The notes: generated by a model not told the origin, from the sequence alone. A DNA stretch of 64,000 bases from an uncultured Methanosarcinales archaeon (GCA_964632045.1 CAZWBB010000004.1:18615-82614); one strand, 5' to 3'; numbered from the stretch's first letter, positions 1 through 48,840 are shown. Numbers and translations are program-made.

Positions 1-3000
1 AAAAGTAGGAAATTACGGAATGAGAGGGTTAGGGAACTGGAAGAGCAGGGTGTTCTGAAAAGCAAAGCACATTCGATTGTCGATCAGGAGTTAGCTGTTA
101 TGGAAGGGACTTTGGAAAAAATAGGTATTAAAGGATATGAGCCAATGAAGTATAACCCATATGATGCGGGAATAGGGGTAGGGTATGAGTCTGATGCCAA
201 AGGATTGGTGACCTTGATGAATGGCCAAGAGATAGATTTGATTTCAGGTTTTGGTTATAGGATTACTGATCAAGCAGCTATCGACAGGGGATTTTTTGAA
301 GTAGCTCCAGGTGTTGTTGTGGACGTAGTACCAACACCAGATGGGAGAGGGCATAGAGTAGTATTATTCGACCTTGATGATGCGGGTAATCCAACCATTT
401 CAAAATTTTTCGAAGAGGGGGAGGAAGGAGTAAATTTCATGACTACAGATGCACTTCGGGCAAAATATACTTTTGAAAAAAGAGCAGATAGACTAGCTTT
501 GTTGGATGAAATTGATGAGGGTGTAGTTCCCCTAAGCGCGGAAGACATGTTTGACGTAAGGTCTCTTGAATCGGGTCCAGCTCGTCCTCCTGCTACCATA
601 CCTGATAGAATTTGGGTATCTGACATTGATAATCAAGCAACGATTGATTTCCTCACTGAAAATGGTTTTGTCAACCCTGACGGCACCGTTGTATTAAGAC
701 GGCCAGAGCCAAAGGCTTCAAAAAGTCTTAAAGACCAGGTAGGTACTGATTTGGAAGGTACGATCATTGACGATCTTAACCTGTATCAGGCGACTAAGGT
801 GATGGACAGTCACGGAAATTGGTGGTATCTTAAGTTAGGGTTGGATGGTGGATTTGAGCAGAAGATTGGGACAGTATATAGCATGCGTGATACAGTACGT
901 AGACATAAAGCCATGGAGAATATCCTTCGTAATATATTCGGTTTACCCGTACCGGAAACCAGGATTCTGCGTACAGCAGACGGTCTGACTATCATGGCTT
1001 CTCCTGCGTTGGACTCTTATACCTCTTTGGAGAAAGGAGAAGTACCCGAACTTCTTGCGCAATTCGTCGCTAATAATGGTCTTGGTCCCGAAGATGCAGC
1101 AAGATTACAGCGTGAAGCAGATTTGTATACCGCGTTACATGCAAAGTTCAGGATTGGCGATGCGGAACTGGGAGTGGCTTATTTTGACGGGATACCTCAC
1201 ATTGTATCTGTCGATAATGAGGTGGCTTTGGCTGGAATGCGTGTTGGGGAGATGATAAATGTTCTGCTTCATGATTTGATGGGAGTCCGCGATGAAACTG
1301 AAGTAATATCGAATGACAGGGTATTTGGCAGCCGTAGAAAGGGGCGATATTTTGGAGAAGTTAATGAAATTGATAGAGAATTATTTGAAAGTGATTTCGC
1401 TGATCATATTGCCATGATCGGGGATCGTGTTGATGGCCCTGATGGTGCTCAGAGGATGCGCAAAGAACTACTAGATGCGGGTTATTCAAAGTCTGAGGTA
1501 GATACGCTTGTAAGAGATATTCAGGATGTTGATGTACGCCATGACTTAGAGACGATAGTAAGAGGGAACGGTGAGGCTGTAGTTTCCGCAGATGGAAAGT
1601 TACGTACTAAGAGCGATTATATTGCCTTTAGGGAAACTGATGAAGGGGATCTTCTGTTCAGGAAGCATAGAAATGAAGTGGTTGCCGAAGCTAGGCAGTT
1701 GGAAGGAGAGGCAAAAGTCAGAAAAGCGGCTGAGTTTCCCGTAGATGAGACTGGTGCCGTACAAAGAAATGTCGTTAACTCAGAGATGATGGATCCTTGT
1801 CCAATCGCTGGGAGAGCAACAGGGATGGCTATGCCTTGTGGTCTCGGTGTTTCTCCCGGTAATTTGAAAGGAAGAAGAGTAAGTATCCAATCGGTCGAAG
1901 GCGGTTCTATCAATGGTGAGTATATGGGTCAGATGGGAGATCAACTGTATCTTAGGCTAGATAATGGTAATGTGAGAGTGCTGGATACCAATCAACTGGA
2001 TATTCATAGTATGGAGGAAGTACCGCTTCCCAAACAGGACACTATGGTTGAGGTTCGCACAGCTGATGGTCCGCTAAGGGGAAAATTCCAAGGTGTTGAT
2101 GAAGAGAATGGCCTTCTATTTGTTGAGGTGAACGGTGAAGTTAGGATTTTTGATGAACAGGAAGTCGCCTTTGCCAGCCTGCGGGAGTTACCGTCCAAAT
2201 CTAAAGTGGCAGCAAAAATTGCTAAGAATCGTCTAACTGGACAGACTTATGTCGGCCAGGGGCCACGCAAGGTTGTATTTAATCCCCAGAACATCAAAAA
2301 GTCTGGCCTAGATCTTGGGGAAGGTGAAACTCTTGTCGCTATGCATATAGATGGACAGACAGGAGAGGTTCGTCTACTTGATCCAACCAGAACATCTTCC
2401 GCCTCCGTGAAGGATGGAGATATTGTTACAAAGGTTAAAGTGAATAATAGAGGAAGAATCATCGAAGTGGAGGGGACGAGAATATCTCGCGCCGGCCAGC
2501 TTGAGAAAGTTGCAGAAGGCTCGGACTTTGGGGAGTATGTGAAATCCACAGCAAGAGAATTTAATGAGGAGTTCTTTCCTTCCTCGCGTATCCCTCCGGC
2601 AAGGACATCAGACGTGGCAAATATTCAGTCGGGAAAGAGGGGATATACTGCTGTGGGTGATTTACATGGCAGTTATGATAACCTCATGGATGACCTTAAC
2701 TTTGATCCAGACAATCCTCTTATTCGAGGTGATCCAGATGATATTGACAGTTGGCAATGGACTGGTGGGGATGCTGTTATTGTTCAGTCAGGAGATATTT
2801 ATGATAGAGGTCCGGATTCTTTGGCCATCCGAGAAGCGATGAACAAGTTGGATGGTCAAGCCAGGCGGCAGGGAGGTAGGGTGGTCCGCTTGATGGGCAA
2901 CCATGAGTTGGGCTTTGTTGATGGAAGTCCATTCATATCAATGTCCGAAGTTAATGAGATTATTGAGAGCGGCAGGGATGTGAGAGCTTACATTGACATG

Positions 3001-5976
3001 GTAAGAGGTCATATTCTGGAAGATGTCAAAGAAGGAAGAATAGTTGCAGCAACAGTAGTCAACGGAGAATTATTTACACATGCTGGTGTAAGCTTCCGCA
3101 AGTTTCCGGAATTTAGGGGTTTGTCTCCGCAAGGTGTTGCGGAGGAAATCAACAGGCGTTTTGTAAGAGCGATGGAATCCGGTGATTTTTCTGACCCCAT
3201 ATTTGATATTGGTATTACCGGAAGATTGGGGGAGGAAGGAGTAGCTCAGATTAAAGCCAATCCTGCCCTTCTCGATGATCCCGAGAATATTGGGGGTGTC
3301 TTCTGGGTGCGCAGAGCTGAGACGAAGGACTTACAGGATTTCAACCCAGCCAAGCACCGTAAGCGGGGTTATGCTCAATATACCGGTCATGAGGCCAAGC
3401 GGACAAAAGACGTGCAGGGGATTGAGGTTGTTGATTTGGGCGATGATGCTTTTGGTAATCCTGTCAAGTTGGGCAACCTTGATGTTGGCAGGACCAAAGC
3501 TTACGGGGGAGGTAAAGGTAGATTATCCAGAAGCGGTGATGATGCATTTGAGAATCTTATGGACAGAGGACTTATCCGGGATGAAGGAATACCTACAACA
3601 CAACAAAGAGCTGGCGAGGGAAGCGTAGTCAATGGCGAACTGATCAATCCTGATGTGGCCCAACCGTGCGTCCGTGTTGTGGGGGGAGCGATACATGGCT
3701 TTGCCGTCGGTTGTCCGGTCGGTTATTGGGACCCGGGCGATGAATTCCCCATCACCACATTAGCAGAGGCAAGAGCAGAAAGTGTTGTAAGATCAGACCC
3801 TGCTGATGTCTCTCACCTGGTCAGTCTTGTTGGTACGGAATCTGAGAGACTGGGGGTGGATCTGCGCTGGGGGGCAGACATCGATCCAGCGGTTGTGGCG
3901 CGGATGGATCCTGAAATAAAGCAGACAATATATGAGGCCTTCCGCGCTAATCCAGAGGAAACACTACGTAAGCTTGATCCTGAACTTGTCGATGAAGTAC
4001 TTGCTGAAAGAGGGATAGACTTGTTAGATTATCTGGAAGCTGCAGAGGATTTCGTTCCTGTCCCATTGCTGGAAGATGTCCGTGAGGGTAGGGTCGCTAG
4101 AAAAGTTATCCCTGCTTCTGGTGATGAAGCTGAGCTTAGAGCTGCTATAGGTACGTTGGAAGAAGCAAGGGGAAGGGTTGCCCGTGAAGGTTTACCAAAG
4201 AGAGAAGTACAATCTGATCTGCCAATTGATGACGATCATCTTGAGGTCGAATCGTTTGCAGGATACCGGGAAAGGGTTGCCCGTGAAGGTTTGCCCGAGG
4301 TAGAAGTGTTATATGGTGAAGAGAGATTCAGGGTTGCTACATTGGATGAAGTCAGAGCTGAGCGTCAAAGACCGCAAGTAGAATTGTCTGGTTGCCCATT
4401 TATCGGGAGAGCCATCGGTGGATGTCAGGGCAGGGGGACTGTGGGGGGAGTGGCTTGTGAGAAGACGGATGGAGTTGGTTGGCGTAGGTTGGATGGTGAG
4501 GAGATTACTCTGGAGCAGGTTGTTGCATTGGAATCTACTGACAGTGGTGTTGATCTGTTTGCTGGTGGAGGAAGACTTCCTGCTGATGCTGTTGGAGGGA
4601 TTGATCCAACTGTGAGAACAGCGATTGCTGACGCTTTTAGGGATGATCCTATCAGTGTATCTGGCAAAGTCAACAACAACATTCTTGGCAAGATGGGACT
4701 TGGCGGAAGGGAAGAGTTTGAATCAGCGTTAAGGGAGCAAGGTAGGGTAGCAGCCTTGTTAGATCAAGCATTACAAGATGGCTTCTCCGTTGGTATACAT
4801 CCAGGGACAGGCGAGATTACTTCCGGAACGCGAGGTGCACAGTACATAAACGGACGTTATGGAGTAGTTGTTGATGACAGCGCAGGAATCACAACAGTTC
4901 TTTATGAGAGTGGCGGCCAGATTCATGTTGCAGAGAAAGGCATGTTCTTTGATGATTTTGATGGAAGGTCCCTGGTAAGTCGTCTAAATGATGATCCTCA
5001 AGTTCAGTCAGACTTAGAGCGAATTGCCTCGGGACTAGAGATGCGTGGGGGGAGAGAGTTGAGAAGTGATATGGGCATTATTTCAGAGATAAGAAAGATG
5101 CATGGGAGAGATGCTCCAAGATATGAGGGTTTTTTTCCTGAAGATGTGCTGGAAGAGAACAGGGAAGCCTACCGGCAACTGCGAAGGGCCATGGCGGAAG
5201 ATCCACCTGATGCAATCTTCACCATTGAAAGGGGAGGAGGATTCATTGGAGAAAGTCTTGTAGAAGGGACTGTTTTCGCAGATAAATTATCAAAAGTCCC
5301 GAAATTTCGCCCTGGAAGTACAAGGGTTGGGGTAGATGTTCCTGATTTGGATCTTCTTAGAGAGAATATTCAGAAGTCGATTGATTCTGGCTCTACCACT
5401 ATATTCATCTCTAATAGTTACGGTAGCGGGGTCTTCAATGGAGGGGATTTGAAATCTCAAGTTATTGATCCCCTACTTAGGGAAAATCCTGGAGTTAAGC
5501 TGGATCTGGAAGTAAGGGATTATGAATACTTCAGACAGAAGTTGCAGGAAAAGATTGATGCAGGAGAGACAAAGCTTGCCATTACTGATACTTATTTTGG
5601 AGGTAGGTTCTCCAGAGAATTAAGAAGTAAAGTAGTGAAGCCTTTGCTAAGAAGTAATCCGGACATTGAAATAGATATATACTGGATGAGGGAGACATTT
5701 GGATTTGAACCTCTCTCGGCGGAAGGAATGCCCACCCTCACGCCATTCCAAGGATCAATAAAACCCACTTCTCCTTACGCATCCAGAGTAGAAGTCCACG
5801 AAGCCCGTACACGAGTCGTACTGGGTGATGATATGGACCTGATTTTTGATGGTTCTGATGACCCTTTAGTAATTTTTGATTCCGAAGGAAAAGTGGAACG
5901 ATTAGTACGACCTGAGACAACATCCCGCGAAGCCCTGGTTAATCTGCTGACGGAAGGTTCAGAGCAATCTAATTAA
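1..5976 (+). CDS. Giant multidomain protein (at least 1958 aa) with a central PPP-family (calcineurin-like) Ser/Thr phosphatase domain. The reading frame stays open back to base 1, so the N-terminus probably lies upstream of the window.
   Basis: ORF 100..5976 has no in-frame stop between 1 and 99. Motifs GDLHGSYDNL, GDIYDRGPDS and GNHE (GDxHG / GDxxDRG / GNHE) appear in order around aa 850-960. An internal RVAREGLP tandem repeat lies near 4170-4300. Confidence 0.6.
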   Translation, partial: KSRKLRNERVRELEEQGVLKSKAHSIVDQELAVMEGTLEKIGIKGYEPMKYNPYDAGIGVGYESDAKGLVTLMNGQEIDLISGFGYRITDQAAIDRGFFEVAPGVVVDVVPTPDGRGHRVVLFDLDDAGNPTISKFFEEGEEGVNFMTTDALRAKYTFEKRADRLALLDEIDEGVVPLSAEDMFDVRSLESGPARPPATIPDRIWVSDIDNQATIDFLTENGFVNPDGTVVLRRPEPKASKSLKDQVGTDLEGTIIDDLNLYQATKVMDSHGNWWYLKLGLDGGFEQKIGTVYSMRDTVRRHKAMENILRNIFGLPVPETRILRTADGLTIMASPALDSYTSLEKGEVPELLAQFVANNGLGPEDAARLQREADLYTALHAKFRIGDAELGVAYFDGIPHIVSVDNEVALAGMRVGEMINVLLHDLMGVRDETEVISNDRVFGSRRKGRYFGEVNEIDRELFESDFADHIAMIGDRVDGPDGAQRMRKELLDAGYSKSEVDTLVRDIQDVDVRHDLETIVRGNGEAVVSADGKLRTKSDYIAFRETDEGDLLFRKHRNEVVAEARQLEGEAKVRKAAEFPVDETGAVQRNVVNSEMMDPCPIAGRATGMAMPCGLGVSPGNLKGRRVSIQSVEGGSINGEYMGQMGDQLYLRLDNGNVRVLDTNQLDIHSMEEVPLPKQDTMVEVRTADGPLRGKFQGVDEENGLLFVEVNGEVRIFDEQEVAFASLRELPSKSKVAAKIAKNRLTGQTYVGQGPRKVVFNPQNIKKSGLDLGEGETLVAMHIDGQTGEVRLLDPTRTSSASVKDGDIVTKVKVNNRGRIIEVEGTRISRAGQLEKVAEGSDFGEYVKSTAREFNEEFFPSSRIPPARTSDVANIQSGKRGYTAVGDLHGSYDNLMDDLNFDPDNPLIRGDPDDIDSWQWTGGDAVIVQSGDIYDRGPDSLAIREAMNKLDGQARRQGGRVVRLMGNHELGFVDGSPFISMSEVNEIIESGRDVRAYIDMVRGHILEDVKEGRIVAATVVNGELFTHAGVSFRKFPEFRGLSPQGVAEEINRRFVRAMESGDFSDPIFDIGITGRLGEEGVAQIKANPALLDDPENIGGVFWVRRAETKDLQDFNPAKHRKRGYAQYTGHEAKRTKDVQGIEVVDLGDDAFGNPVKLGNLDVGRTKAYGGGKGRLSRSGDDAFENLMDRGLIRDEGIPTTQQRAGEGSVVNGELINPDVAQPCVRVVGGAIHGFAVGCPVGYWDPGDEFPITTLAEARAESVVRSDPADVSHLVSLVGTESERLGVDLRWGADIDPAVVARMDPEIKQTIYEAFRANPEETLRKLDPELVDEVLAERGIDLLDYLEAAEDFVPVPLLEDVREGRVARKVIPASGDEAELRAAIGTLEEARGRVAREGLPKREVQSDLPIDDDHLEVESFAGYRERVAREGLPEVEVLYGEERFRVATLDEVRAERQRPQVELSGCPFIGRAIGGCQGRGTVGGVACEKTDGVGWRRLDGEEITLEQVVALESTDSGVDLFAGGGRLPADAVGGIDPTVRTAIADAFRDDPISVSGKVNNNILGKMGLGGREEFESALREQGRVAALLDQALQDGFSVGIHPGTGEITSGTRGAQYINGRYGVVVDDSAGITTVLYESGGQIHVAEKGMFFDDFDGRSLVSRLNDDPQVQSDLERIASGLEMRGGRELRSDMGIISEIRKMHGRDAPRYEGFFPEDVLEENREAYRQLRRAMAEDPPDAIFTIERGGGFIGESLVEGTVFADKLSKVPKFRPGSTRVGVDVPDLDLLRENIQKSIDSGSTTIFISNSYGSGVFNGGDLKSQVIDPLLRENPGVKLDLEVRDYEYFRQKLQEKIDAGETKLAITDTYFGGRFSRELRSKVVKPLLRSNPDIEIDIYWMRETFGFEPLSAEGMPTLTPFQGSIKPTSPYASRVEVHEARTRVVLGDDMDLIFDGSDDPLVIFDSEGKVERLVRPETTSREALVNLLTEGSEQSN

Positions 5977-6843
5977 TCTTTCATAAAAGAGCTTCCTATC
6001 AAAATCGTAAAATGCAGTTATATTACCTCCTTCCATGGGTATACAATATAAAATATCGCCTTGTTTCCCACGTTCTTTTGTCAACCTGACCTCTTGTCCC
6101 TTGAAAATATCTGGAAACAAAAATGCTCCTACCGTGAGAGGATCACACAGTCTGAAAGAATCCCTTCCAGTGTAGGATAGGAAACAATCCGCTAATCCAG
6201 AGACGGCATCATGTAATTTTGACTTATTTGCTTTACTTCTAATCACTGCTGGATTTAGAAATAGGTCGTAAGTGATGTCACGAGGAAGCAGGGAGATCGG
6301 AATGTTCTGAGACGTAACATATTCAAAGGCCTTCCGGTCCCTCACGTAATTATGTTCTGGTTTGTGCAAATTATATTTGTTTCGGTAAAGCACTCCGCCC
6401 ATAAGGTAAATAGAATTGATTTTTGGAGCTATTGAGGGGTCTTTTAGTAGAGCATTTGCAAGATTTGTATTAGGTGCGAGAGAGATTAGATTGATTTCCT
6501 GAGGACTTTTGTGTATAGAGTCTATTATGAAATCAATTCCTTTGTCAGATATTCCAAACTCTACATCTTGCTCTTGCAAGTCCTTGTCAGAAAGGAATGA
6601 ATAGTCATAAACTGAGATGTAGTTCCCTTTTTTCTTCTTCAACTGGCCATCGTAGAAGACAGGAATCTCCTGTTTACCTGCCAGGTTGAGAATTTTCCTG
6701 GCAAATTTTGCTTTATCCCTAATATCTTCCTTTGTTGTGATGATCCCTTCCACTTGTATTTCAGGGGAATTGATTGCTAGAAGCATTGCTAGCAAGTCGT
6801 CAAAATCTCCACCAATATCCGTATTTATGATTACCTTTTGCAT
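5959..6843 (-). CDS. Inosine-uridine-preferring nucleoside hydrolase family protein
   Basis: N-terminal INTDIGGDFDDLLAMLLA matches the DTDPGxDD aspartate cluster of IU-nucleoside hydrolases. Length 294 aa. Its 3' end overlaps the giant ORF convergently by 18 nt. Confidence 0.6.
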   Translation of the reverse strand: MQKVIINTDIGGDFDDLLAMLLAINSPEIQVEGIITTKEDIRDKAKFARKILNLAGKQEIPVFYDGQLKKKKGNYISVYDYSFLSDKDLQEQDVEFGISDKGIDFIIDSIHKSPQEINLISLAPNTNLANALLKDPSIAPKINSIYLMGGVLYRNKYNLHKPEHNYVRDRKAFEYVTSQNIPISLLPRDITYDLFLNPAVIRSKANKSKLHDAVSGLADCFLSYTGRDSFRLCDPLTVGAFLFPDIFKGQEVRLTKERGKQGDILYCIPMEGGNITAFYDFDRKLFYERLIRLL

Positions 6844-7556
6844 ATTCTTTCTTTTGGTATTAGGCTGATGTAATTAATCCTTTCATTCTCTAGGGAGTCA
6901 GTAATGTTGCCTGAATGAATATGTAATACCCCTAGCAACTGGAATATTTTTGCTTGCTCTTCTAGCTTCTTGTAATTTCTTGTTGTGCCATTAATTAGAG
7001 GGATAATTCCTGTTGCTTTATGATAGCAGAAGTTCTCATCCCTCATTTGAAAAGTATCCATGTAATCCTGAACAGCTTGGTGATAAAGAGGATCTTCCCT
7101 ACAATAGTTCTCTTCTGCAAGCTTAAGTGCATTGGACGCTATCATGAACTCTGCTACATATTTATCCTTGTCATTGAAGATTGTCCTAATGCATTTTTCT
7201 ACAAGAAGTGGTTTTAACTTCCCAAAAAGGTTGTTATTATGGTAGTGTTCATACAATATCTCGATAGGTCCTCTCCCTTCACACATCAGCAAGTCCTTAT
7301 TGGATAAGTTTGGCCGCAGGATGTGAATCAACCTATCCTCTTGGTTGATTTTCTTGTCATTATGGCTAAAACCAAGCAAAACAACCGAAGGTGCTTCTCC
7401 TGAAACAGAATGTATGATATAACCATTCTGGTGGGCGGTCTCTACGAGCTTTTGTGAAAAAGGATCCAGCTCAAAGAAGTCAAAGTCTATTTCTTTTGGC
7501 TCAGAGTGTAGGTTTGCTTCTAGTTCCAGTAATTTAGTAACAATGTTGGGTTTCAT
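6831..7556 (-). CDS. Hypothetical protein (241 aa). Its C-terminal 50 aa are duplicated as a fragment at 8676-8867.
   Basis: Long ORF with an ATGA overlap to the upstream ORF. No recognisable motif. Confidence 0.45.
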   Translation of the reverse strand: MKPNIVTKLLELEANLHSEPKEIDFDFFELDPFSQKLVETAHQNGYIIHSVSGEAPSVVLLGFSHNDKKINQEDRLIHILRPNLSNKDLLMCEGRGPIEILYEHYHNNNLFGKLKPLLVEKCIRTIFNDKDKYVAEFMIASNALKLAEENYCREDPLYHQAVQDYMDTFQMRDENFCYHKATGIIPLINGTTRNYKKLEEQAKIFQLLGVLHIHSGNITDSLENERINYISLIPKERICKR

Positions 7557-7771
7557 TTGAAGATATACCTCACGCTTGGGTGTGAAGATTCTGGTCCTGT
7601 AAATGGATGGATCTCTCCAATGAGAATAACCTTTGGTTCTAAGACGCTTCCAGAGGTATAATAAGCATCTGCTGCCAAACAGGTCCCTTCTGTTGCCAAG
7701 AGAATAGCCTTTGCATAGCTACCTAATTCTACCTTGCCTTTTTCGAAACACGACCCCATTGTAATAAACAC
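7553..7771 (-). CDS. Hypothetical small protein (72 aa). It may be the N-terminal part of the 6831-7556 gene, split by a frameshift.
   Basis: 4-nt overlap with the downstream ORF on the same strand. Confidence 0.25.
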   Translation of the reverse strand: MFITMGSCFEKGKVELGSYAKAILLATEGTCLAADAYYTSGSVLEPKVILIGEIHPFTGPESSHPSVRYIFK

Positions 7772-7858
7772 TATGGGTCTGCTTATTTAAATCTTTCGGG
7801 AGATTGTCCTCTAGTAGTAGTCTTTTTTGTTTGTTGCCATCGCTGAGTCGTAGAAACA

Positions 7859-7866
7859 TTTAAATA
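7859..7866 (+). promoter_or_regulatory. TATA-box-like element (TTTAAATA) centred about 27 bp upstream of the ATG at 7889, implying a leaderless transcript
   Basis: AT-rich box at the archaeal TATA distance. There is no ribosome-binding site between the box and the ATG. Confidence 0.35.
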
Positions 7867-7888
7867 TGCTAACAGTTATAAGTTATCG

Positions 7889-8653
7889 ATGGTTAGAATA
7901 TTTTTTGTGGGGGATATTCATGGTCGAATTGATCAGATGTACGAAAAAGCACTCTCTTGGCAGGAAGATAATGGGAAAAAGCTAGATTTGATTATCCAAC
8001 TAGGTGATTTTGAGGTAGTGAGATTTGAGGAAGACATTCGTAACATCGTTGGGCCAAAGAAATATCGTCAATTGGGGGATTTCCATAAGTACTTCTCAGG
8101 TGAGAAATCGGCCCCTATTCCTACTTTTTTTGTGGGTGGCAATCATGAAAATTATGATTATCTGGATTTTCATTATCCGGAAGGTTTTGAAGTTGCGCTA
8201 AACATATTTTACTTAGGAAGATCTGGAGTTAAGGACATTAGTGGGCTGAGGATAGGCTATTTTAGTGGGATAGAAAGCTCACGTTATTTTGATACACCTA
8301 GAAAGTTTTCTAGCGAAAATGGCAAGGTCCATTCCAACAAGTCCCGCCGGAAAGCAATGTATTATAATGAAGATGAATTATCAAAGTTATATGGAGAAAA
8401 GATGGATATTCTTGTCGCTCACGAATTCCCTAAGATGAATCTCTTGGACGGGGAACCAAACCATGTAGACGATTTAGTTAGGAAGGTGAAACCAGTACAT
8501 TTCTTTGCAGGACACTTACATTGGCATCGGCAGAGGGACATCGAAGTCAATGGTCATACTATTAATGCAAGGATACTGGCTCAGATAGGTGATGGGGGCG
8601 ATTATGAAGTGTTGGAAATGGATGCGCAGGATTTTTGCGTGAATTGCTTGTGA
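7889..8653 (+). CDS. Calcineurin-like metallophosphoesterase, lariat-debranching-enzyme (Dbr1)-like
   Basis: VGDIHG ... LGDFEVVRFEEDIRNIVGPKKYRQLGDFHKYFSGEKSAPIPTFFVGGNHE closely follows the Dbr1 N-terminal pattern as I recall it (GDFQAVRNE.D...PPKYR...YYSGEK.AP..T.FIGGNHE), with a further HxH later in the protein. 254 aa. Confidence 0.65.
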   Translation: MVRIFFVGDIHGRIDQMYEKALSWQEDNGKKLDLIIQLGDFEVVRFEEDIRNIVGPKKYRQLGDFHKYFSGEKSAPIPTFFVGGNHENYDYLDFHYPEGFEVALNIFYLGRSGVKDISGLRIGYFSGIESSRYFDTPRKFSSENGKVHSNKSRRKAMYYNEDELSKLYGEKMDILVAHEFPKMNLLDGEPNHVDDLVRKVKPVHFFAGHLHWHRQRDIEVNGHTINARILAQIGDGGDYEVLEMDAQDFCVNCL

Positions 8654-8675
8654 ATCTACTAGCAGAGTATTCTTA

Positions 8676-8867
8676 TCACAGTATATCTGGATTAGGCATT
8701 AAACACAAGTAAGAAATATCTTCTTTTTCCAGGAAGTTGTTGATGTTCCCTGCCAAAGCATGGACACGACCTACCAACTGAAAGATTCTTCCTCCCTCCA
8801 ATTTCCTATAATTATGAGTGGTGCCAAGTATAAGTGGAATTATTCCGCTGGATTGATGGTCGCACAA
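8676..8867 (-). pseudogene. Truncated paralog fragment: 63 aa, about 55% identical to the C-terminus of the 6831-7556 protein
   Basis: SGIIPLILGTTHNYRKLEGGRIFQLVGRVHALAGNINNFLEKEDISYLCLMP compared with TGIIPLINGTTRNYKKLEEQAKIFQLLGVLHIHSGNITDSLENERINYISLIP. Confidence 0.4.
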
Positions 8868-8868
8868 A

Positions 8869-9582
8869 TTACGGTCTCTTGCTCGTAGTGCTGGCCTGTT
8901 CCTTCACACATAAGGATATCTCCCTCTTGCGTTGTGGAAGATGGTCCTCGCCCGGTTCGTTCTCCCCAAAACTCACCTCTCCCGCTTTCAGTAGTCGGAC
9001 AAAATCTTTCATATTACTAACTTCCCCTGCAATAGTCGTATAGGCACGACCAACCCTGCTGGCATAATGTGCGTCAGATCCGCCCACGACTGGAATGTTA
9101 TGTTCTCTGGCAAATTCCAACATCCTGCCGTTCTGCTCAACATCGCATTTTGAATTATATTCCAGGGCAGCGAAGTGTTGATGATATTCATGAAGCATAT
9201 CTCCAATACTGTCATCATAGCCTTTGAAAGGGTGGGCTGCCACCAAAGCCCAATCCTTCTGTTCAGCGATTCCGGCGATCACTGAAAGAGGGATCTTTTT
9301 TGTCGGGATATATTCGTCAGATTTGATGCCATAGATCAGCACATGTCCCTCCCTTGTCTTATATTCCACGCCACGTAAGATCAGCAGATCGCTGTCGCCA
9401 ATTTTCTCCCACGGCTCACTGGCATCATACGAATTGTGTTCCGTGATTATCACTCCATCAAGACCCAGACGCTTGGCCTTAGCGATTATCTCTTTTGGTT
9501 GACTGATGGAATCATGGCTGTACATACTGTGAACGTGAATATCAAACTTCACTGTACAAACTGTTCCGACCCCCATACACAT
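8869..9582 (-). CDS. PHP-domain metal-dependent phosphoesterase
   Basis: N-terminal FDIHVHSMYSHDS ... GLDGVIITEHN ... GSDAH is a PHP (polymerase/histidinol-phosphatase) motif pattern. 237 aa. Confidence 0.65.
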   Translation of the reverse strand: MCMGVGTVCTVKFDIHVHSMYSHDSISQPKEIIAKAKRLGLDGVIITEHNSYDASEPWEKIGDSDLLILRGVEYKTREGHVLIYGIKSDEYIPTKKIPLSVIAGIAEQKDWALVAAHPFKGYDDSIGDMLHEYHQHFAALEYNSKCDVEQNGRMLEFAREHNIPVVGGSDAHYASRVGRAYTTIAGEVSNMKDFVRLLKAGEVSFGENEPGEDHLPQRKREISLCVKEQASTTSKRP

Positions 9583-9673: not shown

Positions 9674-10447
9674 GTGAATATGAAACCTCTTAATCAAGAG
9701 ATTATCGATGGGTGGGTCGTGCTTTTGCAGGAAGCTAGCTATGCTGGGTCCAAGAAAAAACAGATAAGAGAAGGTTATGAGCAACGTTTCGGTGAAGAAA
9801 ACTGGTCGAAAGGACATTATTATGACGAAAAGATCCTCTCCCGTGATGAAACCTATTCTGTCTATGAGGACGGCTACTTCCATTTTCTGAATGACAATCA
9901 GGACATCCTAGAATGGCTTGTAACAACTGCATGTGAAGTTTATGACATCGCTCCCTCCAATGTAGATTCCGGTTTGGATTATTCCGTCCAGGAATGCAAA
10001 GCTACTCACTTACAGGATATTTCAGTGAGAAGAGTAATGAAGCGCTTGGGAAAAGAGTTCCAGGGTGATCATCTGGTGCAGATAAGAGGTCATACTTCTG
10101 AAGGTTACATCCTGAATCCAGGGAAAGTCCCTTTTCACAAACCAGAACTGATACTTCATTCAGACAGGAAGAGCTGGTGGGATAAGGATTCAATAGAAGA
10201 TTTCTATCAGTCCAACAAAGCTCTTTTAGTCAATCCGGAAGTGCTGTCCCTAAGGCCTGTGATTCGGTGTCCTGATGGAGATACTATTTACAGCTACGAT
10301 AAACGAACGTATTATCGCATCTCTGAAGAGCAACCTAGGTTGTTGTGGATAATCAAAGGCAAGAAAGCGCGTCGGCTTCTGCATGAGGATAAGAGGTATA
10401 AGAGATTGCGTGGTGAGGAAAGGAAAGCATATTCTTGTTCTTTGTGA
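9674..10447 (+). CDS. Hypothetical protein (257 aa)
   Basis: Long ORF; no recognisable motif. Confidence 0.45.
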   Translation: MNMKPLNQEIIDGWVVLLQEASYAGSKKKQIREGYEQRFGEENWSKGHYYDEKILSRDETYSVYEDGYFHFLNDNQDILEWLVTTACEVYDIAPSNVDSGLDYSVQECKATHLQDISVRRVMKRLGKEFQGDHLVQIRGHTSEGYILNPGKVPFHKPELILHSDRKSWWDKDSIEDFYQSNKALLVNPEVLSLRPVIRCPDGDTIYSYDKRTYYRISEEQPRLLWIIKGKKARRLLHEDKRYKRLRGEERKAYSCSL

Positions 10448-10454
10448 TTTATGA

Positions 10455-10525
10455 TGACATACCCCGTCGCTCCCGCAGCAAAGCGAGGATTCAAAACGCA
10501 TGGTCGTTTTGTAAGTGGCGGGGTT
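10455..10525 (+). ncRNA. Candidate structured RNA, copy A. A 9-bp closing stem (10461-10469 paired with 10514-10522) encloses two hairpins.
   Basis: Closing stem CCCCGUCGC/GUGGCGGGG. Hairpin 1 is UCCCGC-AGCAAA-GCGAGGA with a bulged A. Hairpin 2 is AAAACG-CAUGGU-CGUUUU. The G-U pairs occur only on this strand. Confidence 0.4.
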
Positions 10526-10569: not shown

Positions 10570-10640
10570 CGTCATACCCCATTGCTTCCGCAACGGAGTG
10601 AGGATTGAAAACGCGTAGTCGTTTTGTAAGCGGTGGGGTT
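10570..10640 (+). ncRNA. Candidate structured RNA, copy B (tandem paralog of copy A, 115-bp period)
   Basis: Same three helices as copy A with compensatory changes. The closing stem is CCCCAUUGC/GCGGUGGGG (G-C becomes A-U, plus wobble swaps). Hairpin 1 is UUCCGC...GUGAGGA (C-G becomes U-G, G-C becomes G-U). The loop sequences differ. Confidence 0.4.
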
Positions 10641-10763: not shown

Positions 10764-12227
10764 ATGGAACCAAAAATGGGACCACCATCAGAACTGAAGA
10801 AGATTAGCAATACCATCTGGGAGCTACCAACAACTTTCAAAAATGGGATGAGAGTTCCTGGAAGAGTCATAGCAACCGAAGAACTGATCCAATCGATGGA
10901 TGCAGGAGTATTCCAACAACTGAGCAACGTCGCAACCTTGCCGGGAATCCAGAAGTATGCATACTGTATGCCCGACGGTCATTGGGGCTACGGATTTCCC
11001 ATCGGAGGAGTGGCTGCTTTTGACATCAATCAAGGGGGAGTGATCTCACCTGGAGGAGTTGGATTTGATATAAATTGCGGCATCCGTATGATGACTACCA
11101 ACCTTTCAGTGGATGAAGTCAGGCCACGGATCAAAGAAATTGTTGATGCTCTTTATATGAAAGTTCCCGCGGGAGTAGGCTGCAAAGGTTTCGTACAGAT
11201 GGACAGGGAAGAATTCAAAGAAGTATTGAGAGATGGCGGAGCTTGGTGTCTGAAGAAAGGATATGCTACGGAGCATGATGTTGCTCATATCGAGGATAAA
11301 GGGAAGATTCCTGGAGCTGATCCCAGTAAAGTATCTGACAAAGCTATCAGCAGGGGATTCAGGCAAGTGGGCACTCTAGGCAGCGGGAATCATTTCCTGG
11401 AGATACAGCAGGTCAAAGAAGAGAACATTCATGACAAAGAACTTGCTGCAAAGATGGGCATTACTGGAGAAGGGCAGGTTGTGATCATGGTGCACTGCGG
11501 TAGCAGGGGATTAGGTCATCAGATAGGAACAGATTATCTACGCAGGTTCCTTGATGTGATGCCAAAATATGGGATCAGTATCCTGGACCGAGAGTTGGCC
11601 TGTGCCCCTTTTAATTCTCCAGAAGGCAAGGATTACTACGGTGCTATGGCCTGCGCCGCTAACATGGCCTTCGTCAACCGACAGGTGATCACTCATCGCA
11701 TCAGAGAAGTACTGAACCGCTTGTTTGATAAAGAAGTAGAAGTAAAGCTTGTCTATGACGTCTGCCACAACATCGCTAAGGTAGAGAAACACATCATCGA
11801 TGGGGAGGAAAAGGAATTGATCGTCCATCGTAAAGGTGCAACCCGCGCCTTCGGCCCATCTCGAGCAGACGACCTTCCTGAAGATTTCAAAGAGATCGGC
11901 CAACCAGTAATCATCGGTGGCTCCATGGAGACCGGTTCCTGGCTGCTGGTAGGGACGGACGGAGCAGAAGAGACTTTCGCTTCTACAGCACACGGAGCAG
12001 GAAGAGTGATGAGCCGCATGGCAGCGAAAAAGAAGTACCAGGGAGAAGAGCTGCAGAAAGACATGGAGAAGAGAGGGATCTACGTGCATGGTGTTACGAT
12101 GAAAGGTCTGGCTGAAGAAGCAGGTGGGGCATACAAAGATGTTGACATGGTCATCGATTCTCTGGCTAAAGCAGGTATCACTAAACCGGTTGTTGCACTG
12201 AAACCGATCGGGAATGTTAAGGGATGA
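10764..12227 (+). CDS. rtcB: RNA-splicing ligase RtcB (tRNA-splicing ligase)
   Basis: 487 aa. The N-terminus and the GVGFDINCGIR, HCGSRGLGHQIG and HGAGR motifs are typical of RtcB. Confidence 0.9.
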   Translation: MEPKMGPPSELKKISNTIWELPTTFKNGMRVPGRVIATEELIQSMDAGVFQQLSNVATLPGIQKYAYCMPDGHWGYGFPIGGVAAFDINQGGVISPGGVGFDINCGIRMMTTNLSVDEVRPRIKEIVDALYMKVPAGVGCKGFVQMDREEFKEVLRDGGAWCLKKGYATEHDVAHIEDKGKIPGADPSKVSDKAISRGFRQVGTLGSGNHFLEIQQVKEENIHDKELAAKMGITGEGQVVIMVHCGSRGLGHQIGTDYLRRFLDVMPKYGISILDRELACAPFNSPEGKDYYGAMACAANMAFVNRQVITHRIREVLNRLFDKEVEVKLVYDVCHNIAKVEKHIIDGEEKELIVHRKGATRAFGPSRADDLPEDFKEIGQPVIIGGSMETGSWLLVGTDGAEETFASTAHGAGRVMSRMAAKKKYQGEELQKDMEKRGIYVHGVTMKGLAEEAGGAYKDVDMVIDSLAKAGITKPVVALKPIGNVKG

Positions 12228-19074: not shown

Positions 19075-20154
19075 TCACACCTTCTGCACGTACTTAAACT
19101 GATTGAAGATTATGATCGAGTCGTAACTGATGATGTTTTCAGAGAATTCAGTCCTGATCTCATCGATGATTCGATGAAAGTCAGCATTGTCTCTGGCAAA
19201 GACGCTTAAGTGATAGTCCCACCTGCCGATCATCTTAATGTACCACACAACGTTAGAATGATATTTAAGGAAAGTGAAAAATTTTTCTTTGTTGAGGTGT
19301 TTAAACTTAAAAAAAACCTTCCACCACTGATAACCCATTTGGCTTAGTGAGGCCAGAGGCATGAATCGCTTGATCACCCCGGATAAGATCATCTTCTTTA
19401 TCCGGTTATCAACGGCTACAGGAGCCAGGTTCACCTTCTCTGAGATGTGCCTGATACTTGCCGCTGCCTCGAGCTTAAGAAGTTCCAGTATCTCTTTGTC
19501 TTTTCTGTCCAATTTCACCTGACTGTGGTCCCCCTTAGAGGCTTCGAATTCTTTCTGAAAAGTAGAACCCTTACGTTCTGAGATGTTGAGTTGACTGCAT
19601 TCTTCTCCCCTGAGTATGAAATCCAATCCCAGGAAATCTTCCTCCAATATTTCGAGGATGTCATACCCATGGATCACATGGTGATAATCATCAATGATGT
19701 TATCCAACAACTGCACAAATTCTTCCTCTTGCCTGACGCTTGCCAGGATCTGGATATCGTAACTGCCAGAACAATTTTTCAATCGTGTTATCTGATCAAA
19801 ATCAAACAGGAAGTCGATCAATTTTTTCTCGTCTGAGAGCGTCTTCAGTTTAATGTATATCAGATAATTCCTCAACCCAAGCCGACGATGGTCTAGTAAA
19901 GTAAGATTGCCGTAGAGGAAATTGCTTTCCATCATCCTTTTGATACGATAGGCTACCGTTTCTCTTTTCAGTCGCAGCTTCTTGGCGATAGCTGTATTGC
20001 TGTAGCGGGCATTCTGGTGGAGAATGTACAGGATTTTTTTGTCTACAAGATCCAACTTGATTGCCTCTCTTACCTTTCCATCTGCATACCTGTTGTATTC
20101 CCTCACTTGTCCTATAAATTTGTTTTGAGACATATCTTTACACAAAGCAAACAC
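19075..20154 (-). CDS. Tandem-duplicated Lrp/AsnC-family transcriptional regulator (two HTH+RAM units). The likely true start is the ATG at 20133.
   Basis: DKKILYILHQNARYSNTAIAKKLRLKRETVAYRIKRM, then a second unit DRKDKEILELLKLEAAASIRHISEKVNLAPVAVDNRIKKM. MSQNKFIGQV aligns with the N-termini of the two paralogs. Confidence 0.65.
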   Translation of the reverse strand: MFALCKDMSQNKFIGQVREYNRYADGKVREAIKLDLVDKKILYILHQNARYSNTAIAKKLRLKRETVAYRIKRMMESNFLYGNLTLLDHRRLGLRNYLIYIKLKTLSDEKKLIDFLFDFDQITRLKNCSGSYDIQILASVRQEEEFVQLLDNIIDDYHHVIHGYDILEILEEDFLGLDFILRGEECSQLNISERKGSTFQKEFEASKGDHSQVKLDRKDKEILELLKLEAAASIRHISEKVNLAPVAVDNRIKKMILSGVIKRFMPLASLSQMGYQWWKVFFKFKHLNKEKFFTFLKYHSNVVWYIKMIGRWDYHLSVFARDNADFHRIIDEIRTEFSENIISYDSIIIFNQFKYVQKV

Positions 20155-21325: not shown

Positions 21326-22041
21326 TCTGTATAAGCTTCACCAAAATAGTCTAATTCAATTTCTAATCTGGGAGGTGAATCAGGTTCAGCTTTGGCTCTG
21401 GCCAGCAGATAGATGTGGGAGTCCGCTAATGATTTCAATTTTGTACAAAGGTCTTTAGAGGTTGATTTTTCAACAGAAATTTTGCGTTCATGTCCACCCA
21501 AAGAGCCGATCCCTTCAGCTTTATAATGCGGCAATATTGGGCCGGTCCTCATCTCTCCATGTGCACCGCGAGGAAAAACCCTTTCCAAAGTCTCCTCTAT
21601 TTTCACATCACTCACATAAGCCCCATTGATAAAAACCAGTCCTTCCTCCGGATTTTGAAGATCTTCGACAGGAGCGATTAATTCACCGAACCAACGGTCG
21701 GAGCGTCGATACCTGTTCATGGGTCTGTAGTTGTGGTAAAATGTCTTACCATCAGAGAAGGGCTTTGTAATCAGCTCGTCAAAAAATGAGATTATCTCTC
21801 CGTGGTTGGTGAAAGTGTAGATCAGGCCCATCAAACCAAATGTTCCACCTAACAACCTTGGCATCTGGTCGTCGCAGCCAAACAATCCATAACCGCACAC
21901 GCCAAAATATCCAGCTGCTCCGACACCATAGGCAAGCGGCCTTATCTTTTCCCAGGTAGTCTTGGGCGATATCCTTGGCTGGGAGTTGCAGAGCTGTTCC
22001 AACCCTTTTTTTGAAGATAGTAAGTTTGTTGGTATCATCAT
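21322..22041 (-). CDS. Hypothetical protein (239 aa); ATGA overlap with the radical SAM gene implies an operon
   Basis: ORF. Gly-rich GVGAAGYFGVCGYGLFGCDD segment. Confidence 0.45.
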   Translation of the reverse strand: MMIPTNLLSSKKGLEQLCNSQPRISPKTTWEKIRPLAYGVGAAGYFGVCGYGLFGCDDQMPRLLGGTFGLMGLIYTFTNHGEIISFFDELITKPFSDGKTFYHNYRPMNRYRRSDRWFGELIAPVEDLQNPEEGLVFINGAYVSDVKIEETLERVFPRGAHGEMRTGPILPHYKAEGIGSLGGHERKISVEKSTSKDLCTKLKSLADSHIYLLARAKAEPDSPPRLEIELDYFGEAYTE

Positions 22042-22183
22042 ATTCTGTGGGGGAATATATTATTTAAATTTTTCTTATTTTTTAGTAGTACCCAGATTTA
22101 GTGGTACTAGTTTACCTGCTTTTGATGTGATTGAATTAATATTAAATCTTCTCATGATTGTTTTACGGAAATGACGATCCGAT

Positions 22184-26954: not shown

Positions 26955-28010
26955 CTACTCCACCCGAGGCTCAAACTTATACTGATTGAAGATTAGGATA
27001 GAATCATAATAATTTATCCCCTCCTTAAACTCATCTCTTACTTCATTAAGCACTCGGTGAAATTCTTTATTATCTCTGGCGAAGATACTCAACTGGTAGT
27101 TCCACTGGCCGATACACTTGACGCACCACTCAATGTTGTTATGCTGTTCTGCATAACTGTACAAGCGACTGTCTTTCACTCCCACCAGATTAAGGAACAC
27201 CGTGAACCATTGATGACCTAGAGCAGAGAAAGAGACAAGCGGAGTAAAGGATTTGATGACCCCCTGAGAAACAAGGTTTCCCATTCGAAGCTTGACAGAG
27301 TTTGGAGCCACTCTAACTTGGTCAGAGATTTCCTTTAATGTTGCCCGGGCGTTGAACTTCAGCAGAGACAAGATTTGTCTGTCAGTATCATCGATTTTGA
27401 TCACACCATTATATGGTTTAAGTTTATCCCGTTCCCCAAATTCCTTGGCGAAAGCAGAGCCTTTCCTTTCCGCTATATTCATCTCCTGCAGCAGTTCAGA
27501 AGAGGGTTCGTCAAAGATCATCATGTTACCTGCCGGGTCCTCTCTCAGAAAATTCAGTATCACATACTCTCTCACTGCAGAAGCATGCTCCTGCAAAAAA
27601 TTGTTGATGAACGCCTCGAATTCTTCCAGGCTTCTGGTAGTTACATCAAAAGCCAAATCATATCTTCCGCTGCAGGCAGATAGAATGGTAATCTCCTCCC
27701 TGCTGATCAGATCCTCTATCATCTTCTCTTCATGGGTTACTTTCACTAACTTCAATAAAACATTGAAAGTCATAAAACCCAGTTTGCGCGGATCGAGAAG
27801 AGTAAGGAATCCGGTAATGATCTTCCTCTTGCGAAGCTGGGAGATTCTGTAAGCAACAACTTCCCGGCTTAGTTTGAGAGATTTAGCTAGGGCAGTGTTA
27901 GAGATACGGCAGTTCCTGGAAAGGATGTACAAAATCTTCTTATCTAACAAATCCACTTTTTGGGGCATGACATCCTGTAATACCTGCCCTCTAAAAATAT
28001 CTGTGTTCAT
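26955..28010 (-). CDS. Tandem-duplicated Lrp/AsnC-family regulator, paralog 2
   Basis: DKKILYILSRNCRISNTALAKSLKLSREVVAYRISQL, then a second unit DDTDRQILSLLKFNARATLKEISDQVRVAPNSVKLRM. Confidence 0.65.
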   Translation of the reverse strand: MNTDIFRGQVLQDVMPQKVDLLDKKILYILSRNCRISNTALAKSLKLSREVVAYRISQLRKRKIITGFLTLLDPRKLGFMTFNVLLKLVKVTHEEKMIEDLISREEITILSACSGRYDLAFDVTTRSLEEFEAFINNFLQEHASAVREYVILNFLREDPAGNMMIFDEPSSELLQEMNIAERKGSAFAKEFGERDKLKPYNGVIKIDDTDRQILSLLKFNARATLKEISDQVRVAPNSVKLRMGNLVSQGVIKSFTPLVSFSALGHQWFTVFLNLVGVKDSRLYSYAEQHNNIEWCVKCIGQWNYQLSIFARDNKEFHRVLNEVRDEFKEGINYYDSILIFNQYKFEPRVE

Positions 28011-29150: not shown

Positions 29151-29237
29151 GCAGCAGATACTTAGTGCCGGACATCGTTTTAATCCTGCAGTAGTAAATG
29201 TAGAAAAGTTTAAATAATCTCGGTTTGTATACTCTTA

Positions 29238-35523: not shown

Positions 35524-36567
35524 TTACTTAACATAAGAAACATACTGTGGATTCCTGAACACAGGCAGACTTTCGATATGACTTATCCCTTCTCCAAACT
35601 GCTGGCATAATTCCTGCAGGATGTCTGACAGATGGGCGTTATGTTTGACGAAGAAACTTAATTTGTAGTTATAATCCCCAAGATACTTGGTGCACCAGAC
35701 AATGTGCGGGTGCTGCTCAGTCCAAGTTTTGAATGCTGTCTCCACCCCCTGCTTTACATTCAGAAATACAAAGTTGAACTGCAATCCAAGGTGGGCAAGT
35801 GCTGCGTAGCAGATGAAACCATGGATGACATCTTCTTTTATTAACTTCCTGATCCTGTTCTGCAGCTGGAAGACGCTGATACCGGTCTTCTTGGACAGAT
35901 CTGTCAAAGGAATCCGTGCATTCAATTTCAGTTCATCAAGAATAACTTTGTCTGTATGATCGATTTTGATCATTTCTCTGCTGATGTTCTGCATGTCAAA
36001 TTCTTTCTGGAAGGCACTACCTTTCCGCTCTTTGATCTTATTGAGATAATCCCGGTCTTTCTTTTCATCTACGAGCATCTTCAGTCTCATGAAACGCTGC
36101 TCGAGACGGGTTAGGATGTTATAATTCTTGATCTTGTCTCCATGACGAAGCAGCAGGTTATGGAAGACATCATAACAGGTATGTTCATCCTTGGCCATTA
36201 TGGTAAGGATGATGTCATGCATCCCCCCACATTGAAAAACAGAACTTATTTCCGGGATGGTCTTAATGTCATTTACAACATCGTCAACCTTGACTGTAGT
36301 ATTGACCTTCAGCCCCACTCCCTTAGAACACAGACCTACTTTTTGCACATTGATCAGAGTCAGATAACCATGGATGATTTTAAGCTCCTGCATCCTTTTG
36401 ATGCGGTAAGCCACCACTTCCCTCCCTATCTTAAGATGTTTGGCGATGGTCGTATTTGAGAGTCTGGCATTGCATGAAAGCAGGTACAAGATCTTTCTAT
36501 CTATTAGGTCCACTTTTTCCTGTTTGACCTTTACCTGCAATTGACCTATAAATTCTTCGCCGTTCAT
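35524..36567 (-). CDS. Tandem-duplicated Lrp/AsnC-family regulator, paralog 3
   Basis: DRKILYLLSCNARLSNTTIAKHLKIGREVVAYRIKRM, then a second unit DHTDKVILDELKLNARIPLTDLSKKTGISVFQLQNRIRKL. Confidence 0.65.
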   Translation of the reverse strand: MNGEEFIGQLQVKVKQEKVDLIDRKILYLLSCNARLSNTTIAKHLKIGREVVAYRIKRMQELKIIHGYLTLINVQKVGLCSKGVGLKVNTTVKVDDVVNDIKTIPEISSVFQCGGMHDIILTIMAKDEHTCYDVFHNLLLRHGDKIKNYNILTRLEQRFMRLKMLVDEKKDRDYLNKIKERKGSAFQKEFDMQNISREMIKIDHTDKVILDELKLNARIPLTDLSKKTGISVFQLQNRIRKLIKEDVIHGFICYAALAHLGLQFNFVFLNVKQGVETAFKTWTEQHPHIVWCTKYLGDYNYKLSFFVKHNAHLSDILQELCQQFGEGISHIESLPVFRNPQYVSYVK

Positions 36568-38117: not shown

Positions 38118-38307
38118 GAAGCTCACTTGGTTACTTGGACTTTCTGCTCTGGCATATGGAGGTTGCGATCTGACTGGCAGCGATGATGACCTCTACTCGC
38201 AGGATGCTGGAGGTTTCATAGAGATGGATGGTGTCAGCCACAATTCGGGGGACGGGGGAGAGTGGGGCAGGGAGGATCGAGGTTTCCGCTGCTGCGTAGA
38301 CATTTGA
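38080..38307 (+). CDS. Small secreted protein (75 aa) ending in RGFRCCVDI, the same tail as the next gene
   Basis: Signal LLGLSALAYGGCDL; C-terminal ...DRGFRCCVDI. Confidence 0.4.
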   Translation: MMIMIGDTMMTSRKLTWLLGLSALAYGGCDLTGSDDDLYSQDAGGFIEMDGVSHNSGDGGEWGREDRGFRCCVDI

Positions 38308-38321
38308 ACGAGGTAAATAAA

Positions 38322-40400: not shown

Positions 40401-40430
40401 GAATGTTCAATAGATACAAGGGGAAAGCTT

Positions 40431-45789: not shown

Positions 45790-45836
45790 AAATGAAAAAA
45801 TGTGTGATTTGAGGATCATACTATTGGAGGAATAAA

Positions 45837-48806: not shown

Positions 48807-48840
48807 GACCAATTGAGCATCAGATAGGGGAGGTATAAAA

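Follow-up and report, generated by a model that had tools for sequence, protein, structure and literature searches.

A metallophosphoesterase of the Dbr1 branch in an archaeal genome, with Asp at the position of the Dbr1 cysteine

Hydrolysis of the 2'-5' bond of lariats has been ascribed to Dbr1, the lariat debranching enzyme, as "the only enzyme known" to perform it (PMC10470207, PMC9202583). A gene that resembles it in an archaeon raises the question of what kind of enzyme it encodes, how that enzyme is related to Dbr1, and what it would cut. Such a gene lies in a stretch of 64,000 nucleotides (nt) from an uncultured Methanosarcinales archaeon (GCA_964632045.1 CAZWBB010000004.1:18615-82614), the whole of which is here referred to as the window, and it encodes a metallophosphoesterase (MPE) of 254 amino acids (aa). 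In the literature searched, we found no treatment of the evolutionary origin of Dbr1 and no described prokaryotic relative, only generic CDD boilerplate; DBR1 and CWF19L1 were expressly left out of a study of the origin of the spliceosome (Vosseberg et al. 2023). The original prediction for this locus had called the MPE Dbr1-like and, in this respect, eukaryote-like, had placed it in a neighborhood with an RNA-processing flavor, and had pointed to a duplicated gene fragment and a leaderless promoter beside it. What had been observed was confirmed. Of the interpretation, the likeness to Dbr1, the fragment, and the promoter found support, and the eukaryote-like character and the RNA-processing neighborhood did not. 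Here, we propose with moderate confidence that the gene encodes a catalytically intact binuclear MPE from a prokaryotic sister family of Dbr1, a predicted stand-alone RNA phosphodiesterase that is flanked by relics of an orphan gene family, here called X.

Among characterized proteins, Dbr1 is by far the nearest to the MPE, both in sequence and in predicted fold. Pfam returned the generic Metallophos family alone and NCBIfam no match at all. A phmmer search of the PDB aligned residues 4 to 188 with Dbr1 of E. histolytica (E value, 3.6e-29), and the only other protein matched in the PDB at an E value of ≤10 was CWF19L1, through its MPE domain (human protein, 2.9e-9). A family profile built from the four closest homologues of the MPE reached Dbr1 at 2.3e-35 across profile positions 2 to 213, which span the whole catalytic domain, and CWF19L1 at 9e-11; the next MPE was a purple acid phosphatase, at 0.17. 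Neither PDB search, with the single sequence or with the profile, matched Mre11, SbcD, or YfcE at an E value of ≤10. An AlphaFold 2 model computed with nine sequences (predicted local distance difference test [pLDDT], 88; predicted template modeling [TM] score, 0.88) was compared with known structures by Foldseek, which ranked Dbr1 first (TM score, 0.84 to 0.85; E value, 6e-21) and CWF19L1 second (0.71), followed after a steep drop by purple acid phosphatase (0.46), LpxH (0.45), and Mre11 (0.40). All three rankings thus put Dbr1 first, as the claim of a specific likeness had it, and generic MPE families were not the best matches by any of them.

The likeness extends into features peculiar to Dbr1, up to a point. 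Three elements are unique to that enzyme: Cys14 in the alpha metal pocket, a lariat-recognition loop, an insertion of 28 to 29 residues (130 to 158) with an invariant R158, and a C-terminal domain (residues 262 to 354) (Montemayor et al. 2014, PMC4176325). Each is individually needed for complementation, and the C14A and C14S variants are inactive in vivo; the branch-point adenine is held between His16 and Tyr64, and I132, K134, F136, F155, and H156 of the loop contact the RNA (PMC4176325). Dbr1 is represented by the E. histolytica structures 4PEF, 4PEH, and 5K77 and by the Pfam families PF00149 and PF05011. The metal-binding and catalytic residues are intact (D9, H11, D40, N85, H86, H178, H209, and H211), and the sequence shows a two-metal phosphoesterase on the Dbr1 branch whose active site is complete. 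H11 and Y59 align with His16 and Tyr64 of Dbr1. An insertion of 29 residues (126 to 154), the part of the model where pLDDT is lowest (67 to 81), matches the lariat-recognition loop in length and position and keeps its anchors, with I128 as the equivalent of I132 and R154 as that of R158. At the position of Cys14, however, stands Asp9 of the motif GDIHG. Furthermore, the MPE ends 43 residues past the last motif, compared to a median of 221 in Dbr1-type proteins, and a Pfam scan found no match in it to PF05011, the Dbr1 C-terminal domain. Because it has Asp for the invariant Cys and no C-terminal domain, the MPE is, by sequence, not a true Dbr1.

This combination of traits is shared by many other proteins. 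An exhaustive profile search over 1.84 billion cluster representatives recovered 3271 at an E value of <1e-3, roughly 1300 at <1e-10, and 280 at <1e-30. The best 150 matches include 75 long proteins with the motif GCxHG, 54 short ones (~210 to 330 aa) with GDxHG, and 14 long ones with GDxHG. Asp occupies the Cys14 position in 53/53 short and 14/14 long Asp-type relatives, and Cys occupies it in 75/75 long proteins of the Dbr1 type. PF05011 was detected in a Cys-type control and in none of nine long Asp-type proteins scanned, from which it appears that the Cys and the C-terminal domain travel together. Across the family, the insertion has a median length of 28 aa, as in Dbr1, with K or R at the R158 position, and 49 of the 53 short Asp-type proteins carry Y, H, or F at the Tyr64 position. 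In a neighbor-joining distance tree, the Cys-type proteins separate with a bootstrap value of 89/100, and the window MPE forms with P0002, P0003, P0004, and P0011 a small clade (93/100) nested among Asp-type proteins. Archaeal hosts of Asp-type proteins are metagenome-assembled genomes (MAGs) labeled Woesearchaeota, Nanoarchaeota, and "Methanosarcinales"; bacterial hosts include Myxococcota, Planctomycetota, Paenibacillus, and Acidimicrobiia, among others. The sole name found in the source annotation of the family is "metallophosphoesterase." We conclude that the sequences define a widespread prokaryotic sister family of Dbr1, typically short (~230 to 290 aa), with Asp for Cys, a loop-length insertion, and no C-terminal domain, and the window MPE has all the traits of its short group, including GDxHG and a placement apart from Cys-type Dbr1. 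When human Dbr1 is cut before residue 399, as in a 1-253 construct, it loses solubility and activity (PMC10470207); true Dbr1 thus needs a domain that the Asp-type family never had. A separate observation concerns a Woesearchaeota MAG (nzgw50; locus L003), which carries two Dbr1-like MPE genes in tandem, at 6958-7695(+) and 7947-8702(+). GDIHG is intact in the first, and motif I is degenerate (LPVEHS) in the second, P0011, which may be inactive.

Since the short Asp-type family is large and is found in archaea and bacteria, apart from true Dbr1, the MPE is not specific to eukaryotes, and we do not retain its description as a eukaryote-like feature. The same data speak to the idea that the MPE is a degenerate eukaryotic Dbr1 that arrived by horizontal transfer, lost its C-terminal domain, and exchanged Cys for Asp. 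Its match to true Dbr1 (median, 120 bits; ~35% identity over ~230 aa) is as high as that to Asp-type proteins that do not belong to its clade (118.5 bits), as such a transfer might produce. In closeness to Dbr1, the window MPE is 22nd of 84 proteins, with P0014 first at 42% identity. Yet its well-supported clade of archaeal MAGs sits within an Asp-type group drawn from many phyla, and the Cys-type proteins have a split of their own. All 67 Asp-type proteins among the best 150 matches have the Asp, and in the short ones the stretch past the last motif is too small to accommodate the domain that the scanned long ones also lack. Independent degeneration would not be expected to leave such a pattern, and we give the transfer of a eukaryotic gene almost no credence.

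As for what the enzyme would cut, the features that it has in common with Dbr1 beyond the MPE core are precisely the ones that grip the branch nucleotide and the 3' arm, and it is for this reason that we look to 2'-5' linkages. The MPE would act alone as an RNA phosphodiesterase, the likeliest target being a 2'-5' linkage, as in lariats and other branched nucleic acids. The nucleotide would be positioned by the aromatic pair together with the loop-like insertion, and catalysis would fall to the canonical Asp-ligated two-metal center. Action on 2'-5'-linked or branched RNA is a tentative prediction, which we place a little short of probable. Several points weigh against our proposal. Dbr1 needs both the Cys and the C-terminal domain that the MPE lacks, so the MPE may not debranch lariats, and the loop residues K134, F155, and H156, which contact RNA in Dbr1, are not conserved. 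Neither the window nor the flanks of related loci yielded a reverse transcriptase, group II intron, or retron, and 11 related loci yielded no group II intron RNA; thus, no source of substrate is evident near the MPE. The phylogeny is distance-based alone, and host taxa are MAG labels. Finally, the history of the relics beside the gene (see below) is only partly resolved, because the link between the intact X gene of the window and its 230-aa counterpart in a related locus is weak.

The first of these points, on the Cys and C-terminal domain, the loop residues, and the lack of any lariat- or branch-producing element nearby, also fit a substrate unrelated to 2'-5' branches, such as ordinary ends of RNA or DNA, oligonucleotides (linear or cyclic), or some small phosphoester, and so do neighbors that are heterogeneous across the family. 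The likeness to Dbr1 would then reflect ancestry, and branch specificity would have come in eukaryotes with the Cys and the C-terminal domain. Harder to reconcile with such a substrate are the family-wide retention of an insertion of lariat-loop length, the persistence of equivalents of I132 and R158 and of Y, H, or F at the Tyr64 position, and the fact that no other MPE family comes near in sequence or fold; we regard it as a real possibility without thinking it probable. A bolder proposal, and to us a rather unlikely one, is that the short Asp-type proteins are the debranching enzymes so far missing from prokaryotes, stand-alone 2'-5' phosphodiesterases that linearize group II lariats, retron-type branches, or other 2'-5'-linked RNA, and at once the ancestral form of eukaryotic Dbr1. 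Dbr1 would in that case have arisen from an Asp-type ancestor through an Asp-to-Cys change and the gain of its C-terminal domain.

The open reading frames (ORFs) that had been described around the MPE are all present in an ORF map of the window (Table 1). Two further samples each gave a contig (L071 and L072) with 100% identity to the window, over 9.4 kb and 2.5 kb, respectively, which shows that the arrangement is no assembly artifact.

Table 1. Features at and around the MPE gene, in window coordinates
Feature	Coordinates	Strand	Basis or remarks
Nucleoside hydrolase	5959-6843	-	ORF and domain assignment
X241, complete X-family orphan gene, 241 aa	6831-7556	-	ORF; Pfam, NCBIfam, and PDB blank
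N-terminal X-family fragment ORF	7553-7771	-	72 aa from GTG or 68 aa from ATG at 7759
TATA-box-like TTTAAATA of the divergent transcript	7784-7791	-	~25-32 nt 5' of ATG at 7759
TATA-box-like TTTAAATA of the MPE	7859-7866	+	23-30 nt 5' of MPE ATG
Dbr1-like MPE, 254 aa, Asp-type GDIHG	7889-8653	+	Pfam, phmmer, profile, AlphaFold 2/Foldseek
C-terminal fragment of second X copy	8676-8879	-	Matches X241 172-238; open ORF 8676-8867, 63 aa
PHP-family phosphoesterase (PHP + PHP_C), convergent with MPE	8869-9582	-	Domain assignment
Probable middle relic, same X copy as C-terminal fragment	8895-8914	-	Other frame, inside PHP 3' coding region; repeat family D5
257-aa ORF between PHP and tandem RNAs	9674-10447	+	Domain-free
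Tandem 68-nt structured RNA repeat	10458-10525 and 10573-10640	+	Intergenic, 5' of RtcB
RtcB	10764-12227	+	E value, 7e-169

To learn which neighbors accompany the MPE elsewhere, we searched ~70 related loci (L001 to L070) within 8 kb on each side of the MPE gene. RtcB, the 257-aa protein, the nucleoside hydrolase, and a nucleotidyltransferase did not recur beside the MPE in any of them, the PHP phosphoesterase recurred in one further lineage only, and among 73 neighbors from 19 loci no Pfam family was seen more than once. Recurring partners are limited to the divergent orphan X and the PHP phosphoesterase, each in two lineages. The second lineage is represented by L001 (GCA_964552945.1), whose MPE is 47% identical to that of the window and where the order is giant protein, 230-aa gene (-), MPE (+), and PHP (-), with 9 nt between the last two; the PHP proteins of the two loci are homologous (E value, 2e-27).

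RtcB, the PHP phosphoesterase, and the tandem structured RNA do lie near the MPE, as had been reported, and their proximity within 4.4 kb invites the reading that MPE, PHP, the two RNAs, and RtcB form a functional island for RNA repair or processing. The MPE-PHP adjacency in L001 agrees with it, as does a weak resemblance of the PHP protein to RNase RNM (2.6e-4) and to a bisphosphate phosphatase (1.3e-4), both far below the NCBIfam cutoffs. The genes, however, have separate promoters and lie on different strands, with PHP convergent on the MPE; no related locus has RtcB or the RNAs in its flanks, no neighboring family recurs at all, and an adjacency in two lineages can be explained as residual synteny. 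With neighbors that do not recur, the RNA-processing flavor is a local coincidence or at most lineage specific, and we consider a functional island very unlikely.

The tandem RNAs are 82% identical to each other, and each combines a long terminal stem with an inner AAAACG/CGUUUU hairpin. The terminal stem pairs CCCCGUCGCU with AGUGGCGGGG in one copy and CCCCAUUGCU with AGCGGUGGGG in the other, differences that entail at least one compensatory G-C to A-U change. Folding z-scores are -3.0 and -2.1, and AUGAUGA stands directly 5' of copy 1. No Rfam family came near its gathering score, the best being SNORD96 (E value, 0.55) on the opposite strand. For the 257-aa ORF upstream of these RNAs, Pfam and NCBIfam gave no match, and none of the related loci has a homologue of it.

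Other loci with Dbr1-like MPE genes offered further observations. In L069, a gene for a Card1-type (CARF) endonuclease, at 4039-5208(-), lies ~2 kb from the MPE P0012, and neighbors sighted once each in other loci include AbiEii/AbiEi, Fic, PIN, and a DDE transposase; these may hint that some family members reside in variable or defense regions. A tRNA match of 117 nt, long enough for an intron, was found at 1837-1953(+) in L013, a locus of a MAG labeled Methanosarcinales, where a distant Dbr1-like MPE lies ~6 kb away. Upstream of the genes in Table 1, the window encodes a 1958-aa ORF at 100-5976(+), with a calcineurin-like phosphoesterase segment at residues 851 to 946 (GDLHG...GDxxDRG...GNHE) and no other Pfam domain. 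Giant ORFs are also found directly upstream of the X/MPE pair in L001 (>4700 aa) and L003 (>2000 aa), with no homology to the 1958-aa ORF detected.

On both sides of the MPE lie members of the X family. X241 has no Pfam, NCBIfam, or PDB match even at an E value of ≤10; neither it nor the L001 230-aa protein has homologues in an index of 5.8 billion proteins, and a single-sequence AlphaFold model of it reached a pLDDT of only 36. A ChaN/TraB/erythromycin-esterase-like fold, guessed from a GE.H ... G.xH motif, gained no support and was dropped. X241 and the L001 protein give a weak collinear match to each other (E values, 0.011 to 0.033; hhalign, 0.011). Beyond the MPE, the 63-aa ORF is 52% identical (33/63; 71% positives; E value, 8e-20) to residues 176 to 238 of X241; it is a true paralogue of the C terminus of that gene, at close to the ~55% identity first given. 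By tblastn, the similarity begins earlier, at residue 172, and reaches window position 8879, which falls ~10 nt within the PHP gene. Over its length, the C-terminal fragment has 61% nucleotide identity to X241, with 22/17/38 differences by codon position and a nonsynonymous divergence (dN) of 0.37 against a saturated synonymous divergence (dS), a ratio of ~0.12. The codon-position pattern and this ratio indicate that the X copies diverged mainly as coding sequence.

Two further pieces show that the local duplication or rearrangement originally proposed is real but larger than one fragment. The probable middle relic lies in the third frame, where DILMCEGTG--QHY is collinear with LMCEGRGPIEILYEHY of X241 (LMCEGRG being residues 90 to 96); its local alignment score was reached by 6/500 shuffles, and its place and frame imply a deletion of ~65 residues and a frameshift. 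The N-terminal fragment, annotated as a 68-aa gene in L071, matches the N terminus of the L001 230-aa gene (BLASTP E value, 7e-7; 47% over 30 aa). We rejected an insertion of the MPE into a single X gene: read along the coding strand, the C-terminal fragment comes before the N-terminal one, and the former is X241-like and the latter L001-like. These differences in order and in nearest relative call for at least three X copies. The N-terminal fragment would be the remnant of the original divergent partner gene, with its promoter retained; X241 would be a paralogue now expressed from that ancestral divergent promoter behind the fragment; and the far-side relic (8676-8914) would be a decaying third copy. 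Such an arrangement would result if an X-MPE unit had been duplicated in tandem and the second MPE, along with the second promoter region, had then been deleted. The tandem Dbr1-like genes of L003 are consistent with recurrent duplication here. Two other candidates for X were set aside: a gene divergent from the MPE in L069 and L070 has the length of X241, 241 aa, and is unrelated, and a 101-aa minus-strand ORF between the MPE copies of L003, overlapping the 5' end of the second, is not claimed as an X C terminus (hhalign E value, 0.13).

The 63-aa ORF could still be a functional small protein, a stand-alone X C-terminal module translated by termination-reinitiation after PHP. An open stretch of 67 codons has just one indel, which keeps the frame; its divergence falls mostly at third positions, and its sole start, TTG, lies 1 nt past the PHP stop codon TAA. 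Such a signal of selection may, however, be inherited from before the truncation. The ORF has no ATG, GTG, or Shine-Dalgarno-like motif, was not called by gene callers in L071 and L072, and has no counterpart in L001, where 9 nt separate MPE and PHP; homology to X241 continues upstream in another frame across the deletion, as is typical of a decaying pseudogene. A functional protein is, in our judgment, decidedly unlikely. Also at this spot, the last ~33 residues of the PHP protein (8869-8960, minus strand) are not conserved with the L001 orthologue and partly overlie the X relic in other frames; the tail may be a reading frame extended across a decaying pseudogene.

The proposed leaderless TATA promoter of the divergently transcribed MPE fits what we found. 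The octamer TTTAAATA has six copies in the window, compared to ~3 expected by chance, and two of the six fall within the 117-nt divergent intergenic region, one on each strand, both 23 to 32 nt 5' of an ATG (at 7889 for the MPE and at 7759 for the 68-aa form of the N-terminal fragment ORF). Their sequence and spacing are consistent with archaeal TATA boxes driving leaderless mRNAs for the MPE and for the divergent transcript. X241 is probably the second cistron of the latter, because TGAGGT lies ~10 nt upstream of its ATG; the stop codon of the N-terminal fragment ORF overlaps its start (ATGA). Of the remaining four copies of the box, three, at 22061-22068(-), 29209-29216(+), and 55243-55250(+), stand 20 to 30 nt 5' of ORF starts at 22041, 29238, and 55273, and this spacing suggests that leaderless transcripts are common in the source genome.

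Farther along, the window holds two groups of similar genes. Seven large genes on the same strand, at 38262-52046(+), have a MopE-type Cu-binding motif in common and combine it with matrixin, FGE-sulfatase, VWA, or PD40 domains; they resemble a set of paralogues for surface or secreted proteins. Three proteins of ~350 aa, at 19075-20154(-), 26955-28010(-), and 35524-36567(-), each have two AsnC-type helix-turn-helix matches and an Lrp/AsnC ligand-binding domain, and they look like duplicated-module regulators.

The interest of this locus is the family that it reveals. The locus is otherwise ordinary: its MPE is one member among many, there is no conserved operon, and the flanks are gene relics. 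The family itself is large and prokaryotic and has the Dbr1 core, the adenine-stacking pair, and the loop-length insertion, but a canonical Asp and no C-terminal domain. It gives easily expressed candidates for the question of branched-RNA turnover in archaea and bacteria, and it bears on the question of which Dbr1 features, the Cys and the C-terminal domain, are eukaryotic inventions.

Set beside known systems, the PHP neighbor resembles the PHP + PHP_C phosphoesterases of the TrpH/YciV-like kind (PDB 3E0F; E value, 4e-8). It scores 76 bits against the NCBIfam CehA/McbA domain, whose cutoff is 80, and falls below every equivalog cutoff, with a C-terminal tail that is not conserved. The MPE has the generic calcineurin-like fold and metal motifs I to V in common with Mre11/SbcD, YfcE, LpxH, and purple acid phosphatase, but TM scores between it and these families are just 0.40 to 0.48. 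Second nearest is the N-terminal domain of CWF19L1/Drn1, known from the intron-lariat spliceosome structures 8RO1 and 8RO2, which likewise falls on the Dbr1-like branch of the MPE superfamily and is far more distant from the MPE than Dbr1 is; the window MPE lacks the CwfJ-type C-terminal domains of CWF19L1/Drn1 and retains a complete catalytic set. From Dbr1 itself, the MPE differs in having Asp9, in not conserving the loop residues K134, F155, and H156, in having no C-terminal domain, in being prokaryotic, and in standing outside the Cys-type clade, whereas the two are alike in their MPE sub-fold, in all catalytic and metal ligands save one, in the His16/Tyr64 pair, and in an insertion that carries equivalents of I132 and R158.

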